Below are positions 57,163-60,687 of a stretch of 64,000 nt of DNA, piece after piece. The notes beneath the pieces are model-generated. The model saw nothing but the letters and a program-made list of their open reading frames with translations, was not told where the DNA came from and made no database searches. The stretch's first letter is position 1. Every line of letters begins with the position of its first letter. Position numbers and translations under genes: made by a program. The stretch is from a virus (Duplodnaviria > Heunggongvirae > Uroviricota > Caudoviricetes), in IMG/VR virus record IMGVR_UViG_3300014204_000107, positions 43,468 through 107,467 of that record. One strand, 5' to 3'.

Positions 57163-58095
57163 ATGCAAGTATTAAATCTTGACCCTAATTTCAAGCTTAC
57201 GGAGGATATTGTTAAAACCCAGCCGTTGTTGCCATTTTCAGAGATACAATTTAAACAATTCAACTTCCCGAGTGGTTGCGAGCCACATATCAAACTTGAT
57301 CCTGATACAGTATTAGCAGGGCATCCTGCCGTTATTGCGTGCAGGATCAATTCTATGAATGACATGATGGTAGTATTGCTTGCCACTGATGCTTTAAAGA
57401 GATTGGGAGTAAACCATATTGAATTATTCATTCCGTTTATGCCATTTGCTAGGCAGGACAGAGTCTGCGACAAAGGCGAACCATTTTCCATTAAAGTACT
57501 TGCAGATATCATTAATATGCAAGGATATAAGCAAGTTATTATGGTGGATGCACATTCAGATGTAGCGCCGGCATTAATAAATAATTCAGTTGTAATTAGC
57601 AATGCTACTTTTGTAGCTGCAGTTATGTATGGTTATGAAGTAATTATGGATGAATACAACCCAGCCATTATTGCTTCAGATGGTGGAGCAGCTAAAAAGA
57701 TATACAAGACGCTTAAAGAAATTGAGTTATATGATGTAGAAGTTATTGAATGTAGCAAGGTGCGCGACTTGAAGACTGGCAAAATCACAACATACAAAGT
57801 ACATACAGAGAAGCCCCTTACAAACAGAACTTGCTATATTATTGATGACATCTGTGATGGTGGCGCTACATATAAGCTCCTTGTAAAGAGATTAAAAGAA
57901 CTTGGAGCAGCAAGAGTGGTGCTTCTTATTACATTTGGCATCTTTTCAAATGGCCTTGATACATTATTCGAAGCGGGCATTGATAAGATATATACAACTA
58001 CGCTATTCAATGACATTGCACCAATGGAATATATAAATTCTGATAAATATATTGGTCCTGAATACTTCCAGCAATTGAAGCTTACTGATATTTAA
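57163..58095 (+). CDS. ribose-phosphate pyrophosphokinase (Prs) family protein; could be canonical PRPP synthetase or the Prs-homologous ADPR-pyrophosphate synthetase (Adps) of phage NAD reconstitution
   Basis: FIPFMPFARQDR (Prs YARQDR loop), PRPP-binding CYIIDDICDGGATY; 310 aa. Confidence 0.65.
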   Translation: MQVLNLDPNFKLTEDIVKTQPLLPFSEIQFKQFNFPSGCEPHIKLDPDTVLAGHPAVIACRINSMNDMMVVLLATDALKRLGVNHIELFIPFMPFARQDRVCDKGEPFSIKVLADIINMQGYKQVIMVDAHSDVAPALINNSVVISNATFVAAVMYGYEVIMDEYNPAIIASDGGAAKKIYKTLKEIELYDVEVIECSKVRDLKTGKITTYKVHTEKPLTNRTCYIIDDICDGGATYKLLVKRLKELGAARVVLLITFGIFSNGLDTLFEAGIDKIYTTTLFNDIAPMEYINSDKYIGPEYFQQLKLTDI

Positions 58096-58103
58096 TATAA
58101 TTC

Positions 58104-58148
58104 TTGGTTGCCTGGTATAATTTACTTACCTTTAACCTATAACAAACA
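58104..58148 (+). promoter_or_regulatory. recurring promoter/leader motif
   Basis: TTGGTTGCCTGGTATAATTTACTTACCTTTAACCTATAACAAACAA before ATG 58154. Confidence 0.45.
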
Positions 58149-58153
58149 ATATT

Positions 58154-58396
58154 ATGAACAGAAGAGTAGTATTTATACAAGTTGACGATTGGTACGGCCT
58201 TTACGTTGACGGCAAACTCATAGATGAAGGACATATCATTAATGCAATGGAAATGCTTGAAATTGCTGAAAAGAACGCATTTACATATTCGGATGTAATT
58301 TGCAGATATCTTGAGAGTAATGATAAAAATTATGACATAATCGAACAGTCTGGAAGGATGCCCAAAGAATTATCCGCATTTACATTTAAAAACTAA
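58154..58396 (+). CDS. small hypothetical protein
   Basis: ORF. Confidence 0.4.
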   Translation: MNRRVVFIQVDDWYGLYVDGKLIDEGHIINAMEMLEIAEKNAFTYSDVICRYLESNDKNYDIIEQSGRMPKELSAFTFKN

Positions 58397-58501
58397 CATA
58401 TGCAAATTACAAAGAAAACAATTTGCGTATTAGTTGAAAAGTTTCTTTTGTAAACGTCAATAAATCATATTCTTTGCCTATTTATATTAAAAGGAGAATG
58501 C

Positions 58502-59152
58502 ATGGAATTTAAATTAATTGATGATTATGCAAAACAAGAAAAGTTATCAGTCAAGGAAGTTTGGCAATTAGTTAAAGATGAACAGTTAATTTACAAAAAA
58601 GGTAATGGTGGTGCAATATTAGTTAGAAAGTTAAGTACTGAAACTAAATATTGCCCCTGGTGTAAACAAATAAAATCAGTTGATCATTTTGGCAATGATG
58701 CTAATAATCATAATGATTATTTGACAAGACAATGCAAAGTTTGCAGACGAGCAAGAGCAAAAACATTACCAGGTAATTATACAGAAGAACGTAAACGCAA
58801 AAATACAAGTAATAAGTCAAAAGAACGCCGAAAATTATATTATTCTGATGATGTTAATAATGCAGCAGCAATAAATATGAGATTGATTAATGAATTTGGC
58901 ATCACACTAGATGATTATAATAAATTATTCATTGATCAGGATGGTAAATGTGCAATATGTGGCACATCAACAGCAGGCAAACCAAAGGAAGGATTAAATT
59001 CTTTAAGATTTGCTGTTGATCATGATCATGCTACAGGTAAAGTCAGAGGATTATTATGCTCAATGTGCAATAGATCATTGGGTGGATTTAAAGATGATAT
59101 AATAATATTAAATAACGCAATTAAATATTTACACAAACACAGCAAACAATGA
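58502..59152 (+). CDS. recombination endonuclease VII-like (T4 gp49 family) with N-terminal Cys4 and DHDHATGKVRGLLCSMCN core
   Basis: DHDH…G.VRGLLC..CN signature. Confidence 0.6.
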   Translation: MEFKLIDDYAKQEKLSVKEVWQLVKDEQLIYKKGNGGAILVRKLSTETKYCPWCKQIKSVDHFGNDANNHNDYLTRQCKVCRRARAKTLPGNYTEERKRKNTSNKSKERRKLYYSDDVNNAAAINMRLINEFGITLDDYNKLFIDQDGKCAICGTSTAGKPKEGLNSLRFAVDHDHATGKVRGLLCSMCNRSLGGFKDDIIILNNAIKYLHKHSKQ

Positions 59153-60687
59153 GTGTAATAACTAAACAAAATCCCTTGCTAGCATTAGATTGCTATAAGC
59201 TCGGACATGGCATGCAGTATGCCCCCGGCACAACTAAAGTTTATTCATATCTTACTGCCAGAAGCGACAAGCAATTTGACAGGTCAGTCTTTTATGGGCT
59301 GCAATATTACTTGAAAGAATACTTTACAATTAAGCTTGAGCCGTGGATGGGTGAAGAACTCATTGAACATTACGGTCTTATTTTAGGACCATGCCCTGAA
59401 CAAATGGCATCTAAGATTCGTGCCCTGTGCCAACTTGGTTACTATCCACTTGAAATTAAAGCAGTTGAAGAAGGTACTGTGATGCCTGTCCGCAATGTTC
59501 TTATGACCATTACTAATACACACCCAGACTTCTATTGGGTGGTTGGTTTCGTTGAGTCCTTGATTCTTAAAGCTTGGTATCCCATTACAGTTGCCAGCTG
59601 CTGCTATGACTACCGTAGGATTGTCGAGCAATACTACAAAGAGACTGTCGATGAAAATATGTATTTCCTAAAAGATTTTACTGTTCATGATTTCGGTTAT
59701 CGCGGTGACTCTTCGGAAGAAGGTGCTGCTTTATCCGGTGTTGCTCACCTGTTATCTTTCCTCGGATCTGATACTGTGCCTGCATTGAAATTTGCTCTTG
59801 AGTATTATAATGCGGACAAAACAAAGCCCATTATGCTTTCAGTTCCTGCCAGCGAGCACTCTGTAATGTGCAGCTTTAGCAGAGAAAATGAACTTGCTGC
59901 TTTCGAAAATATGCTGGATTTATATCCTTCGGGCATTGTTTCAATCGTGTCAGATACGTTTGATGTCTATCGCGTGCTCACAGAGTTTGCCGAAGTGCTA
60001 AAGGCAAGGATCTTAGCCAGAGACGGTAAGGTTGTATTCCGGCCAGACTCAGGCAATCCTGAATATATTATTTGTGGCGATCCTACTGCTCCGGAAGGTT
60101 CCAATGAATGGAAAGGTTGTTTAAGACTGCTCGATGAAAAGTTCGGCAGCACTGTTAATTCCAAAGGATATAAAGTGCTCAACCCAAAGGTTGGTCTTAT
60201 CTATGGCGACGGCATGTACAAAGAAAGGTATATTCGTACACTTGATAGAATGAAAGAACTTGGGTATGCAGCTTCCAATTTAGTAATTGGTGTTGGTGGC
60301 ATCCTCCGCAATCATTCCAGAGATACGTTAGGCTTTGCCTTAAAAGCTACATATGTTGAAGTGAATAATGAACCACGCGAAATTGAAAAGGACCCAGTGA
60401 CAGACCACAAAAAGAAGTCGCACAAGGGACTGCTTGCACTTACTTGGGATGATGAAAACAAGTTTGTAACCCACGATCAGTGCACTCCATTACAGGAGCA
60501 TAACTCATTGCTTAAGACCGTGTTCCATAACGGTACTATCCTGAGGCAGTACACATTAGACCAGCTGAGAAGCCGTATCCGTGGCACATTCCTTGAGTCA
60601 CCAGATAAATGCAGCCATTGTGGTTCAGAAAGGTTTACGAGGCAGGATGACGTTTGGTTCTGCAGTGAATGTGGACATTATTGCTAA
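59149..60687 (+). CDS. nicotinamide phosphoribosyltransferase (NAMPT/NadV) family protein; alternatively the NAMPT-homologous nicotinamide ADPR transferase (Namat)
   Basis: FGYRGDSSEEGAALSGVAHLLSFLGSDTVPAL and SVPASEHSVM motifs; 512 aa. Confidence 0.65.
   Translation: MSVITKQNPLLALDCYKLGHGMQYAPGTTKVYSYLTARSDKQFDRSVFYGLQYYLKEYFTIKLEPWMGEELIEHYGLILGPCPEQMASKIRALCQLGYYPLEIKAVEEGTVMPVRNVLMTITNTHPDFYWVVGFVESLILKAWYPITVASCCYDYRRIVEQYYKETVDENMYFLKDFTVHDFGYRGDSSEEGAALSGVAHLLSFLGSDTVPALKFALEYYNADKTKPIMLSVPASEHSVMCSFSRENELAAFENMLDLYPSGIVSIVSDTFDVYRVLTEFAEVLKARILARDGKVVFRPDSGNPEYIICGDPTAPEGSNEWKGCLRLLDEKFGSTVNSKGYKVLNPKVGLIYGDGMYKERYIRTLDRMKELGYAASNLVIGVGGILRNHSRDTLGFALKATYVEVNNEPREIEKDPVTDHKKKSHKGLLALTWDDENKFVTHDQCTPLQEHNSLLKTVFHNGTILRQYTLDQLRSRIRGTFLESPDKCSHCGSERFTRQDDVWFCSECGHYC

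Follow-up and report, generated by a model that had tools for sequence, protein, structure and literature searches.

Within the window analyzed here, that is, the whole 64,000-nucleotide stretch of phage DNA, a Prs homologue and a NAMPT-family protein are encoded that sit in a phage of about 300 kb and most likely form a two-gene module for rebuilding NAD+ after bacterial immunity. By its sequence, the first protein is clearly a member of the Adps family, and the second belongs to a large sister branch that lacks the feature thought to define Namat enzymes. With chances that we put at about even, the module would be NARP1-like and convert ADP-ribose (ADPR) and nicotinamide to NAD+ with a clamp-less second enzyme. 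If this is true, the pool drained by NADase-based defences (Thoeris, DSR, and SIR2-HerA) would be refilled.

Organization of the module

The module comprises four genes, all on the + strand, in the order Prs-like gene, 80-aa ORF, EndoVII gene, and NAMPT-like gene. The features considered below are as follows:

57163..58095, +, Adps-type (ADP-ribose pyrophosphokinase-like) Prs homologue, 310 aa (profile matches, neighbour-joining [NJ] tree, residues)
57844..57873, +, PP loop DDICDGGATY, residues 228-237, Adps-type donor-site loop (comparison with ICP1 Adps and PRPS)
58092..58121, +, promoter-like site just past the Prs-like stop (consensus match, 10/12, extended TG)
58154..58396, +, 80-aa ORF inside the module (phrog_23765, 1.5e-11)
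58502..59152, +, free-standing EndoVII/HNH-type (homing-like) endonuclease, 216 aa (PF02945, phrog_2633)
59149..60687, +, NAMPT-family protein of the "GGILRN" clade (clamp-less, Namat-like), 512 aa (profile matches, tree)
60067..60117, +, IICGDP...KG segment (alignments; common to Namats, none in classical Nampts)
60289..60324, +, clamp-helix (SCH-equivalent) region GVGGILRNHSRD, residues 381-392 (alignment to SPbetaL1 Namat)
60610..60684, +, C-terminal zinc-ribbon extension CxxC...CxxC (CSHC...CSEC), residues 488-512 (PF08274, AF2)
60706..60762, +, intrinsic-terminator-like hairpin (60706-60752, 20-bp stem) and T-run after the NAMPT-like stop

All ORFs of the initial annotation proved real, with the coordinates given there and on the + strand, and a gap of 1,053 bp separates the Prs-like and NAMPT-like genes. 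The family-match E-values of the module ORFs are far beyond chance; Pfam, TIGRFAM-type, and phrog profile matches bore out both proposed family assignments (a Prs homologue and a NAMPT homologue), and the view of the pair as an NAD+ module built from a Prs-like and a NAMPT-like protein stands. The same four-gene layout occurs on contigs of four independent samples, the longest being 299,185 bp. The 80-aa ORF, the EndoVII/NAMPT-like overlap, the zinc ribbon, and the terminator-like hairpin had previously gone unmentioned.

The Adps-type Prs homologue

The 310-aa protein matched Pribosyltran_N (Pfam, 1.5e-10), TIGR01251 (117.7 bits; cutoff, 113), and phrog_619 (8e-73), and carries FARQDR at residues 95-100. 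In the NJ tree, which like that of the NAMPT family included few classical outgroups, canonical PRPS (E. coli and human) split from the remaining proteins at 100% bootstrap; the phage protein was nested among validated Adps (ICP1, SPbetaL1, Bas63 cluster). It is 34% identical to ICP1 Adps and 22% to E. coli Prs; between the two validated Adps, the value is just 31%. Moreover, none of the catalytic and acceptor residues (F35, R97, H131, D173, K199, D228, D229, and D232) is altered, and the four positions that discriminate Adps from PRPS (I208, C231, G233, and Y237) all show the Adps state. The corresponding PP loops are DDICDGAASF in ICP1 Adps versus DDMIDTGGTL and DDMADTCGTI in PRPS (PMC13586617), and DDICDGG is present in about 115 of the 120 closest homologues. 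The AF2 model has a pLDDT of 89.6 and is without helices beyond residue 270. Phylogenetic placement between Prs and Adps, which had been suggested as a check, came out clearly as Adps-type on the NJ tree, diagnostic residues, and AF2 model; a housekeeping PRPP synthetase was ruled out by the tree and the discriminating residues.

Judging from family membership, the enzyme would move pyrophosphate from ATP to ADP-ribose, yielding ADPR-PP; pyrophosphorylation of ADPR is known for purified SPbetaL1 Adps, with which a PRPP-synthetase assay yielded no product (bioRxiv 10.1101/2024.02.11.579819). This bears on a serious, if doubtful, rival, PRPP-dependent nicotinamide salvage, a three-step route nearer to NARP2 and to the 2008 prs-nadV reading. 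There, the NAMPT-like protein would be a true Nampt (NadV) making NMN from nicotinamide and PRPP supplied by the Prs-like protein or the host, and NMN would become NAD+ via host NadR, NadM, or PncC followed by NadD and NadE, or via a phage NMNAT beyond the window. Against this route, the Prs-like protein is an Adps by phylogeny and residues, validated Adps is not a PRPP synthetase, and the PP loop lacks the DT(G/A)GT ribose-5-phosphate loop of PRPS.

A clamp-less clade of the NAMPT family

The 512-aa protein matched NAPRTase (1.5e-36), NAMPT_N (3.2e-12), NF006629 (522 bits), and phrog_448 (1e-163), with an intact core (D14, Y16, F182, R185, D208, R298, D300, G353, D354, G383, R391, and D392) and an AF2 pLDDT of 91.5. 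Its best solved-structure match, in sequence and fold alike, is SPbetaL1 Namat. In the NJ tree, it falls in the GGILRN clade (100% bootstrap), which is separate from both classical Nampt and canonical Namat and branches between them together with the clamp-less L005, L007, and L008; where classical Nampt splits off (100% bootstrap), the protein groups with the Adps-associated side. The suggested placement between NadV and Namat thereby yielded neither but a third clade, each split having 100% bootstrap. Classical Nampt (NARP2 type) was ruled out by the position outside that clade (100% bootstrap), and canonical Namat by the position outside its clade (100% bootstrap) and the absence of both clamp aromatics.

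Aligned with GIGSFTYQYNTRD of SPbetaL1 Namat, the region GVGGILRNHSRD shows S391->G, deletion of F392, Y394->L, Y396->N, and N397->H, so that both adenine-stacking aromatics of the Namat "selectivity clamp" are missing (F392 deleted, Y396 = N) and the helix is one residue shorter. Of the 120 closest homologues, 114 carry the motif GVGGILRN(H/W/Y)(S/T)RD, in which one position alternates between H, W, and Y. S190 and S391 are G, as in Nampt, and the SCL loop is short and Nampt-like. The G356/Y359 ("IYGD") states are common to the protein and Namats, and the IICGDP...KG segment is found in SPbetaL1 Namat, H. ducreyi NadV (HdNadV), bacterial Namat-motif proteins, and the GGILRN clade, while in the same alignments it is missing from the Xcc, human, and NARP2-phage Nampts. 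Of the 18 columns that discriminate Namat from Nampt, 7 are in the Namat state in this clade, 5 in the Nampt state, and 6 in neither. Such a mosaic, together with the clade's intermediate position and the fact that SPbetaL1 Namat and KVP40 Nampt are each somewhat active on the non-preferred donor, would suit a relaxed enzyme using ADPR-PP from its Adps partner and host PRPP comparably, with NAD+ and NMN as products, as an evolutionary intermediate between Nampt and Namat. We consider this unlikely; the strict conservation of GVGGILRNHSRD (114/120) points to selection for a specific way of binding, not a relaxed one.

In the NARP1-like reading, the 512-aa protein would couple ADPR-PP with nicotinamide to form NAD+ directly, a step proposed more tentatively than the first. 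Since the aromatic adenine clamp is absent, the AMP moiety would be bound otherwise or with lower selectivity, and candidate contacts are the clade-conserved H389 (varying to W or Y only) and K41. KVP40 Nampt, though classical, can form NAD+ from ADPR-PP. Against this reading, the protein lacks the published defining Namat signature; clamp double mutants of SPbetaL1 Namat lost activity 4- to 17-fold, and R40A/F392G abolished counter-defence in vivo while PRPP-to-NMN activity was kept (PMC12774641).

The NMN synthesis kept by Namat clamp mutants also speaks for PRPP-dependent salvage, as do the Nampt-like clamp helix and SCL loop and the Nampt states at S190 and S391. A further point in its favor is HdNadV, which lies on the Namat side with its clamp aromatics lost (GAQTYQRNTRD) and was characterized as an efficient PRPP-dependent Nampt (PDB 9ke8/9keo), thus providing a precedent for clamp loss accompanying PRPP use. 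However, HdNadV is nested in the canonical Namat-motif clade and keeps Y394 and the full loop length, whereas the phage protein belongs to a separate deep clade with an Adps-like partner wherever the flank sufficed. HdNadV is not known to have an Adps partner.

The C-terminal zinc ribbon (weak PF08274 match, 0.0035; AF2 beta-hairpins, pLDDT 72-80) occurs in only 2 of the 120 closest NAMPT-like homologues.

Relatives and comparison with known systems

The NAMPT-like protein is closest (66-77% identity) to proteins encoded in chromosomal nrtR-prs-nadV operons of Bacteroidota and other bacteria; the NadV proteins from Pedobacter, Mucilaginibacter, Sphingobacteriales, and Sericytochromatia share 68-77% identity with it and have an identical GVGGILRNHSRD. 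The GGILRN clade is mostly chromosomal (Pedobacter, Mucilaginibacter, and relatives; soil Bacteroidota) and includes several large phages, and an Adps-like gene lies upstream of every member gene with enough flank, in bacteria (L085-L107) and phage-like contigs (L131-L133) alike. With 70-77% identity to its relatives and a GC content of 42.7% versus 34.6% for the window, the NAMPT-like gene looks recently bacterial; the Prs-like protein is 41-49% identical to its own relatives. In addition, one Adps sub-lineage partners both canonical aromatic-clamp Namats (Flavobacterium L087, Bacteroidota L121) and GGILRN proteins, the Adps-like proteins of Flavobacterium L087 and Pedobacter L090 being 54% identical and their partners 44%, which suggests that both partner types accept the same product.

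The nrtR-prs-nadV operon (Shewanella, Acinetobacter, Chromobacterium, and Cytophaga), known since 2008 as ADP-ribose sensing, with ADPR as the NrtR effector (PMC2330246), holds the closest homologues of both phage genes in the same order, and its Prs paralogues share the DDICDGG loop. NrtR is encoded upstream in the bacterial operons, whereas the phage copy lacks it and has the endonuclease and 80-aa ORF between the genes and the zinc ribbon on the NAMPT-like protein. Both phage genes may be the counterpart of this ADP-ribose-induced operon from Sphingobacteriales-like Bacteroidota. Rodionov et al. (2008) proposed that the operon commits a PRPP supply to nicotinamide salvage (PMC2330246), which favors the salvage rival; however, genes for ADP-ribosylglycohydrolase, NADAR, Macro-like, Tpt1, and Metallophos proteins adjoin or sit inside the bacterial operons, and the ADPR-sensing regulator and ADPR-releasing enzymes better fit an ADPR-consuming pathway, because no ADPR pyrophosphatase (yielding ribose-5-phosphate) is encoded there.

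The search for an NMNAT/Nudix gene proposed initially gave no match among the 49 ORFs of 120 aa or longer in the window, in the 10 kb downstream (74 kb of the 299-kb genome in all), or near the GGILRN pairs of L085, L086, and L131-L133. Of the phages that have a KVP40-type Nampt, 94% carry Nmnat as well. Both points weigh against salvage, although the search covered only about one quarter of the phage genome. Like the NARP2 system (KVP40 NadV and NatV; Nampt and Nmnat/Nudix), the module combines a large phage with a NAMPT-family enzyme whose clamp region is non-aromatic and Nampt-like, but the protein is separated from the NARP2/classical Nampt clade at 100% bootstrap (32% identity), and its gene has an Adps-like partner of a kind missing from NARP2 phages.

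With NARP1 (Adps and Namat; phages Bas63, SPbetaL1, Fado, ICP1, and DyoEdafos), the module shares both families, order, and strand, an Adps as first enzyme, and a second enzyme with a Nampt-like catalytic core and the Namat IICGDP insertion. It differs in that the second enzyme lacks the GS-X-phi-X-phi-X-phi-TRD aromatic clamp and falls outside the canonical Namat clade, and the pair is nearest to bacterial chromosomal genes, phage NARP1 proteins being 38-44% (NAMPT-like) and about 37-39% (Adps-like) identical. The initial annotation had named the right alternatives, NARP1 and PRPP-dependent salvage, but its NAMPT homologue fits neither type.

Intervening genes and transcription

The 80-aa ORF, which had no Pfam match even at E 0.05, is confined to L001-L003 among all loci examined. 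The 216-aa ORF matched Endonuclease_7 (PF02945, 1.3e-22) and phrog_2633 (1.1e-35) and has an N-terminal CxxC...CxxC finger and an HNH core, DHDH...CSMCN, at residues 173-194. Among the loci examined, it occurs in this phage lineage only (L001-L004), and a LAGLIDADG endonuclease occupies its slot in the related contig L133. Its GC content is 30.0% versus 34.6% for the window. As a small, sporadic, low-GC nuclease ORF between conserved genes, it resembles free-standing phage homing endonucleases (HNH/EndoVII-type and LAGLIDADG), being homing-type by sequence, but it shares its last 4 nt (ATGA) with the start of the NAMPT-like gene, indicating that it is integrated into the operon. It is predicted to be a selfish homing-type endonuclease riding in the operon, outside the pathway.

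Interruption by an EndoVII gene had been called unusual, yet in 45 of 71 related loci more than 150 bp lie between the two genes, and in 24 the distance is 1 kb or longer; only the identity of the insert, a putative EndoVII/HNH endonuclease, is lineage-specific here. Gaps across the locus set contain a Macro-like ORF in 19 loci and NADAR in 5. Extended NARP1 operons likewise have extra genes between or beside Adps and Namat, but the published inserts (RyDEP glycosidase and the Adpp Macro-domain phosphatase) are ADPR-producing accessory enzymes, whereas no ADPR link was detected for the EndoVII/HNH and 80-aa ORFs.

The interval from 58095 to 59149 holds no terminator-like site, as would be expected if the four ORFs were co-transcribed. 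The promoter-like site at 58092..58121 is a consensus match; sigma-70-like sites are fewer than in shuffles, and Bacteroidota-type promoters lie outside the model. Decay of the module, in which insertion of the endonuclease and 80-aa ORF would have uncoupled the pair and left one or both genes non-functional, is very improbable. It would accord with a pair split by 1,053 bp holding a selfish element and with the far greater divergence of the Prs-like protein from its relatives; however, neither ORF is truncated or has lost a catalytic residue, AF2 gives confident folds for both proteins, the arrangement recurs in the four samples, split pairs are the majority among related loci, and, with overlapping EndoVII and NAMPT-like ORFs and no internal terminator, the module ends at one strong terminator-like hairpin.

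Four-gene layout of the NAD module

The Prs-like and NAMPT-like genes lie on the same strand of the window, with two further ORFs between them.

ORFs of the module (positions in the window)
57163-58095, +, Prs homologue, 310 aa; Pribosyltran_N, 1.5e-10; TIGR01251, slightly over cutoff; phrog_619, 8e-73
58154-58396, +, small ORF, 80 aa, without assignable function
58502-59152, +, Endonuclease VII (EndoVII)/HNH protein, 216 aa; Endonuclease_7 (PF02945), 1.3e-22
59149-60687, +, NAMPT-family protein, 512 aa; NAPRTase, NAMPT_N; NF006629, 522 bits; phrog_448, 1e-163

The NAMPT-like gene follows 1,053 bp downstream of the Prs-like gene, and its start overlaps the EndoVII stop (ATGA). 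Considering this overlap, the lack of terminator-like sites between the module genes, and a hairpin with a 20-bp stem and a T-run just 3' of the NAMPT-like stop (60706-60752), the four ORFs resemble one transcription unit. A sigma-70 promoter scan detected fewer sites than in shuffled sequences (13 versus 21.7) and is uninformative for a host that is probably a member of the Bacteroidota. In four samples, contigs encoded an identical NAMPT-like protein in an unchanged arrangement of the four genes; the longest of these contigs (299,185 bp; ENA ERZ27247350 k141_2421633) indicated that the window belongs to a jumbo-phage-sized genome. When the 4.5-kb region was compared with deposited phages by Megablast, no match and thus no close relative at the nucleotide level emerged. 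The GC content was 42.7% in the NAMPT-like gene and 30.0% in the EndoVII ORF, the minimum of the module, compared with 34.6% in the window.

The Prs homologue groups with Adps

In NARP1, Adps converts ADPR and ATP to ADPR-PP, from which Namat forms NAD+ with nicotinamide, while NARP2 relies on Nampt and Nmnat. To place the Prs homologue, a bootstrapped neighbor-joining (NJ) tree (48 taxa, 268 columns) was built from the sequences in the supplementary table of the NARP1 paper, with E. coli Prs and human PRPS1 (identity verified) as the only two PRPS outgroups. These two split from all other taxa with 100% bootstrap support, and the window protein nested among the ICP1 Adps, the SPbetaL1 Adps, and the Bas63 cluster, the first two of which are biochemically validated enzymes. 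The choice between Prs and Adps, which the initial annotation had left to phylogeny, therefore falls to Adps. The best solved-structure match was E. coli Prs at only E 2e-17, and phage "ribose-phosphate pyrophosphokinases" of the Felixounavirus/Kuttervirus type matched at 1e-34 to 2e-44; Bas63, the founding NARP1 phage, is presumably a Felixounavirus. The window protein shares 34% identity with the ICP1 Adps and 22% with E. coli Prs; between the two validated Adps, identity is only 31%.

According to the 2026 ICP1 structure (PMC13586617), Adps proteins have lost the alpha11-alpha12 C-terminal module, carry a catalytic lysine in a hairpin, and have a PP loop that is remodelled, with a donor site (C215-S220) and an F221 lid replacing the DT(G/A)GT loop of PRPS. 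The PP loop of the window protein reads DDICDGGATY (DDICDGAASF in ICP1, DDMIDTGGTL in PRPS), and the residues at ICP1 positions 194, 215, 217, and 221 are I, C, G, and Y, the Adps state at all four. The catalytic and acceptor residues K199, R97, H131, D173, D228, D229, D232, and F35 (K185, R87, H121, D161, D212, D213, D216, and F18 in ICP1) were retained; being also kept in PRPS, they mark an intact active site rather than specificity. After THGIFS, the tail comprises 48 aa and lacks (L/I)LAEAIRR, compared with 61 to 64 aa in PRPS, and the AF2 model (pLDDT 89.6) has no helix beyond residue 270. A Namat-family gene lies close by in 97% of the Adps clade, and the window gene likewise has its NAMPT-family neighbor. 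Judged by its sequence, the Prs homologue is a member of the Adps family that conforms to all sequence rules of the ICP1 paper.

The NAMPT homologue falls outside the classical Nampt and canonical Namat clades

Among solved structures, the 512-aa protein matched the SPbetaL1 Namat best (361 bits), followed by the classical Nampt reference Xcc (298 bits) and human NAMPT (275 bits). Its catalytic core is intact, with F182, R185, D208, R298, D300, G353, D354, G383, R391, D392, D14, and Y16 corresponding to F189, R192, D215, R306, D308, G360, D361, G390, R399, D400, D13, and Y15 of Namat; with both active sites preserved, a defunct module appears highly improbable. The aromatic selectivity clamp is absent: in SPbetaL1 numbering, the window sequence GG-ILRNHSRD has G for S391, a deletion at F392, L for Y394, and N for Y396. 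In addition, S190 is replaced by G, and the SCL loop, which in Namat supplies an adenine-stacking residue (R, K, or Y in third position), is two residues shorter than that of SPbetaL1. The canonical clamp motif occurred in all 76 IMG/VR homologues L009 to L084, while the motif GVGGILRN(H/W/Y)(S/T)RD was found in 114 of the 120 best-matching database clusters (66 to 86% identical), which makes the loss of the clamp a character of this GGILRN clade and not an accident. K41 aligns with R40 and is kept in 12 of 13 clade members; however, the loop is shortened, and classical Nampts have K at this site as well.

An NJ tree of the NAMPT family (49 taxa), in which human NAMPT (verified), Xcc, and the T4-like NARP2 loci L124 to L129 served as classical Nampts, revealed three groups with 100% bootstrap support each, namely the classical Nampts, the aromatic-clamp clade, and the GGILRN clade with the window protein. 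The GGILRN clade branches in the middle, with the Prs-associated proteins and near the clamp-less phage proteins of loci L005, L007, and L008. Unlike a NARP2 enzyme, the window protein is thus excluded from the classical clade (100% bootstrap; 32% identity). Across 18 columns discriminating Namat from Nampt, the GGILRN clade has 7 Namat, 5 Nampt, and 6 other states; G356 and Y359, adjoining the AMP-phosphate contact, are among the Namat states, and the Nampt states lie in the clamp helix and at S190 and S391. An IICGDP...KG insertion is common to the GGILRN clade and the Namats. With states of both kinds in one protein, a dual-substrate enzyme is conceivable, but we consider it improbable.

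The initial annotation had held that the pair matches either classical salvage or NARP1, and had proposed phylogenetic placement of the NAMPT homologue against NadV and Namat. This holds in part: the Prs homologue is of the Adps type and its partner falls on the Adps-associated side of a fully supported split, but that partner lies outside both the classical Nampt clade and the canonical Namat clade (100% support).

The AF2 model of the NAMPT-like protein was confident (pLDDT 91.5). Fold comparison was set aside as a discriminator of Namat from Nampt; Namat had the best E-value, yet TM-scores were equal (0.82 to 0.85) for human NAMPT and the Haemophilus ducreyi NadV (HdNadV). HdNadV (PDB 9ke8/9keo, the former recognised through Foldseek) is a classical "Nampt" employed in NMN production; it fell inside the aromatic-clamp clade beside the SPbetaL1 Namat, with Q and R at the two aromatic clamp positions, and may represent a Namat reverted to PRPP use. 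L005, L007, and L008 are podovirus-like phages (P22-type portal and coat) in which a Prs-like gene adjoins the NAMPT homologue; their clamp helices are full-length but non-aromatic (GGLLLQQHNRD, GGLLLQSHSRD, and GGILLQCCTRD), and no Nmnat or Nudix was seen beside them among the strongest 25 of 31 Pfam families. They look like further uncharacterised intermediates, branching between classical Nampt and Namat. A CxxC...CxxC zinc ribbon is fused C-terminally to the window enzyme (residues 488-512; 60610-60684, +) and occurred in 2 of the 120 best-matching homologues, both of the window phage lineage. The NAMPT of Chitinophaga pinensis is a highly active PRPP enzyme that serves NMN production. Its membership of the GGILRN clade was probed with a Chitinophagaceae (Ilyomonas) query, whose best 120 matches included no Chitinophaga-named protein.

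A clamp-less clade in the bacterial nrtR-prs-nadV operon and in large phages

The nearest relatives of the NAMPT-like protein are chromosomal and include those of Mucilaginibacter robiniae, about 12 Pedobacter species, Sphingobacteriales/Bacteroidota MAGs, and Bdellovibrionales, with 76% identity to the window protein in a Sericytochromatia MAG. In nearly all of them, the gene order is nrtR (Nudix plus NrtR winged helix), Prs-like, NAMPT-like. This nrtR-prs-nadV operon was described, Cytophaga included, by Rodionov et al. 2008 (PMC2330246), who identified ADP-ribose as the effector of NrtR and explicitly left open the reason for a dedicated prs paralogue. Both window genes are orthologous to those of the operon: the NAMPT-like protein is 68 to 77% identical to those of Pedobacter, Mucilaginibacter, and Sericytochromatia, the Prs-like protein is 41 to 49% identical to the operon prs paralogues, and the motifs are identical. 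Unlike the operon, the window lacks NrtR (two NrtR seeds gave no homologue in phmmer, and Pfam gave no NUDIX match).

The operon exists in two versions, one with the aromatic-clamp type in Flavobacterium (L087), Acetobacteraceae, Janthinobacterium, and others, and one with the GGILRN type in the Pedobacter group. Their Prs-like partners are alike, sharing the DDICDGG and ARQDRV..GEP.S.KV loops and intermingling in the tree, and both versions are accompanied by ADPR-related genes (ADP-ribosylglycohydrolase, NADAR, Macro-like, Tpt1, and Metallophos). Overall, clustering at 90% identity gave over 100 separate clusters of the GGILRN clade at ≥66% identity. GGILRN pairs were also present in the further large phage-like contigs L131 (97 kb), L132 (299 kb), and L133 (214 kb), with no NrtR, Nmnat, or Nudix near these pairs. 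The window Adps-like protein is at most 41 to 49% identical to anything, while the NAMPT-like protein is 70 to 77% identical to bacterial proteins and its gene has a GC content of 42.7%, which suggests that the two genes have resided in the phage for different times.

An ADP-ribosylglycohydrolase gene (PF03747, 3.4e-38) lies at 18183-18956 (+), upstream of the NAD module by 39 kb; its product might release free ADP-ribose or undo ADP-ribosylation. In Mucilaginibacter (L085), a gene of this family immediately follows nadV, and in a Bacteroidota locus (L121) one lies within the operon. As orthologues of operon companions or parts of the module, both this protein (only 27 bits) and the window Metallophos protein (24032-24787; no match) were rejected.

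Recurrent inserts between the paired genes

In 71 related loci with both genes (duplicates included), the pair was adjacent in 26, separated by 150 to 1000 bp in 21, and separated by at least 1 kb in 24 (maximum 5.7 kb). Interruption by an EndoVII gene, initially regarded as unusual, is thus one case of a recurrent arrangement. In 19 loci, the gap held a Macro-like 156-aa ORF that probably corresponds to the Adpp phosphatase known from "extended NARP1"; NADAR, a nucleoside deoxyribosyltransferase-like protein, Thg1, and HAD proteins also recurred, and an insert has already been published for DyoEdafos (RyDEP).

The EndoVII/HNH ORF itself, with its HNH core (DHDH...CSMCN) at residues 173-194, was confined to the four loci of the window phage lineage among about 130 loci. 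The Adps-like and GGILRN-type genes are adjacent in L131 and L132, and in L133 a LAGLIDADG homing endonuclease (8233-8988, +; PF14528, 3.2e-05) occupies the slot of the window EndoVII ORF. Like free-standing homing endonucleases, the window ORF carries an Endonuclease_7/HNH domain and occurs sporadically between conserved genes. Given its confinement to one lineage, its lowest GC content, and the LAGLIDADG gene in the same slot of L133, we read it as a putative selfish homing-type endonuclease, and with two endonuclease types at one position, endonuclease genes may insert preferentially at this junction.

Proposed pathway and its alternatives

By analogy with the validated Adps, which make ADPR-PP and are not PRPP synthetases (bioRxiv 10.1101/2024.02.11.579819), the 310-aa protein would make ADPR-PP, and the 512-aa protein would then join ADPR-PP and nicotinamide to NAD+. 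The second step is weakened by the absence of the clamp, since clamp mutants of the SPbetaL1 Namat lose ADPR-PP-driven synthesis and retain NMN synthesis (PMC12774641), and by HdNadV, a proven PRPP enzyme inside the Namat-motif clade without the clamp aromatics. Both observations would suit salvage from PRPP through NMN. On the other side, the second step is supported by the invariant pairing of GGILRN-type genes with Adps, the single Adps sub-lineage common to both partner types, the ADPR-sensing and ADPR-releasing context of the bacterial operons, and the absence of an ADPR pyrophosphatase or NMNAT within the regions examined. Specifically, the window contains 49 ORFs of 120 aa or more, and no match to CTP_transf_like (NMNAT) or NUDIX occurred among them, all 35 Pfam families matched being accounted for, and neither NMNAT nor Nudix occurred within 10 kb downstream of the pair. 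NARP3 (PnuC plus NadR) was dismissed, as both families are absent from the window. On balance, we give a NARP1-like function of the window pair an even chance and regard PRPP/NMN salvage as less likely, but as the foremost alternative.

For the GGILRN clade as a whole, we tentatively propose, at somewhat less than even odds, a third functional class within the Nampt family, made up of nicotinamide ADP-ribose transferases that are coupled to Adps and bind ADPR-PP without an aromatic clamp, perhaps by means of K41 and the H/W/Y residue 389. In that case, the operon of Bacteroidota and other bacteria would be a housekeeping, ADP-ribose-induced, two-step route recycling ADPR and nicotinamide to NAD+, which large phages captured and made into a counter-defence, and the published Namat signature would be lineage specific and not defining. 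Reading the prs paralogue as Adps would also answer the question of 2008, in that ADPR would induce an operon turning ADPR and nicotinamide into NAD+. Should the clamp-less enzyme instead prefer PRPP, the pair would be an Adps-Nampt hybrid outside all current schemes.

As systems, NARP1 (2024) and the bacterial operon (2008) were already known. New with respect to the literature searched are a large Adps-coupled clade without the published Namat-defining feature, its identity with the NadV of the Bacteroidota nrtR-prs-nadV operon, and its carriage by jumbo phages; in that literature, NARP1 and NrtR appeared together only in work on NARP3, a different pathway. NARP1 is now recognised by the Adps/Namat pair and, since 2026, also by the aromatic clamp of Namat, and motif-based annotation would therefore assign the clamp-less clade to the ordinary Nampts, and a possible anti-defence module would be overlooked.

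Other genes in the window

Several further genes were observed in the window:

1946-2497, +, pyruvoyl-dependent arginine decarboxylase homologue (PF01862, 5.6e-30), a polyamine-pathway gene unusual in a phage
4127-4708, +, small HTH/NUMOD1 protein, which may be part of another homing-endonuclease-related gene
11529-12476, +, QueE-like radical SAM protein
15698-16201, +, pentapeptide-repeat protein
19059-20081, +, DUF932 protein (8.7e-53)
23293-23832, +, HD_4 phosphohydrolase (7.7e-07), first gene of a cluster at 23293-25631 (+)
24032-24787, +, calcineurin-like phosphoesterase (PF00149, 2.9e-13), same cluster
24747-25631, +, GH16 glycoside hydrolase (4.1e-18), same cluster
26670-28118, +, TROVE/Ro60-like protein with a vWA domain (PF05731, 3.1e-19)
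31055-32983, +, SPFH/Band_7 protein, 642 aa
33035-33107, +, tRNA-like gene
38275-39180, +, second pentapeptide-repeat protein, fused to DUF5758 (PF00805, 1.5e-73; PF19062, 1.3e-34)
51024-52514, +, MoxR-like AAA_5 ATPase

Of the clamp-less loci L005, L007, and L008, one likewise carries DUF5758. The tRNA-like gene, about 5 kb from the TROVE gene, was reported by ARAGORN as "tRNA-???" with an odd anticodon and scored 42.6 bits as an Rfam tRNA; an Rfam scan of the whole window found nothing beyond this one tRNA. Bacterial Ro60 orthologues function with tRNA-like Y RNAs, and the two genes could thus form a phage Ro/Y-RNA pair.
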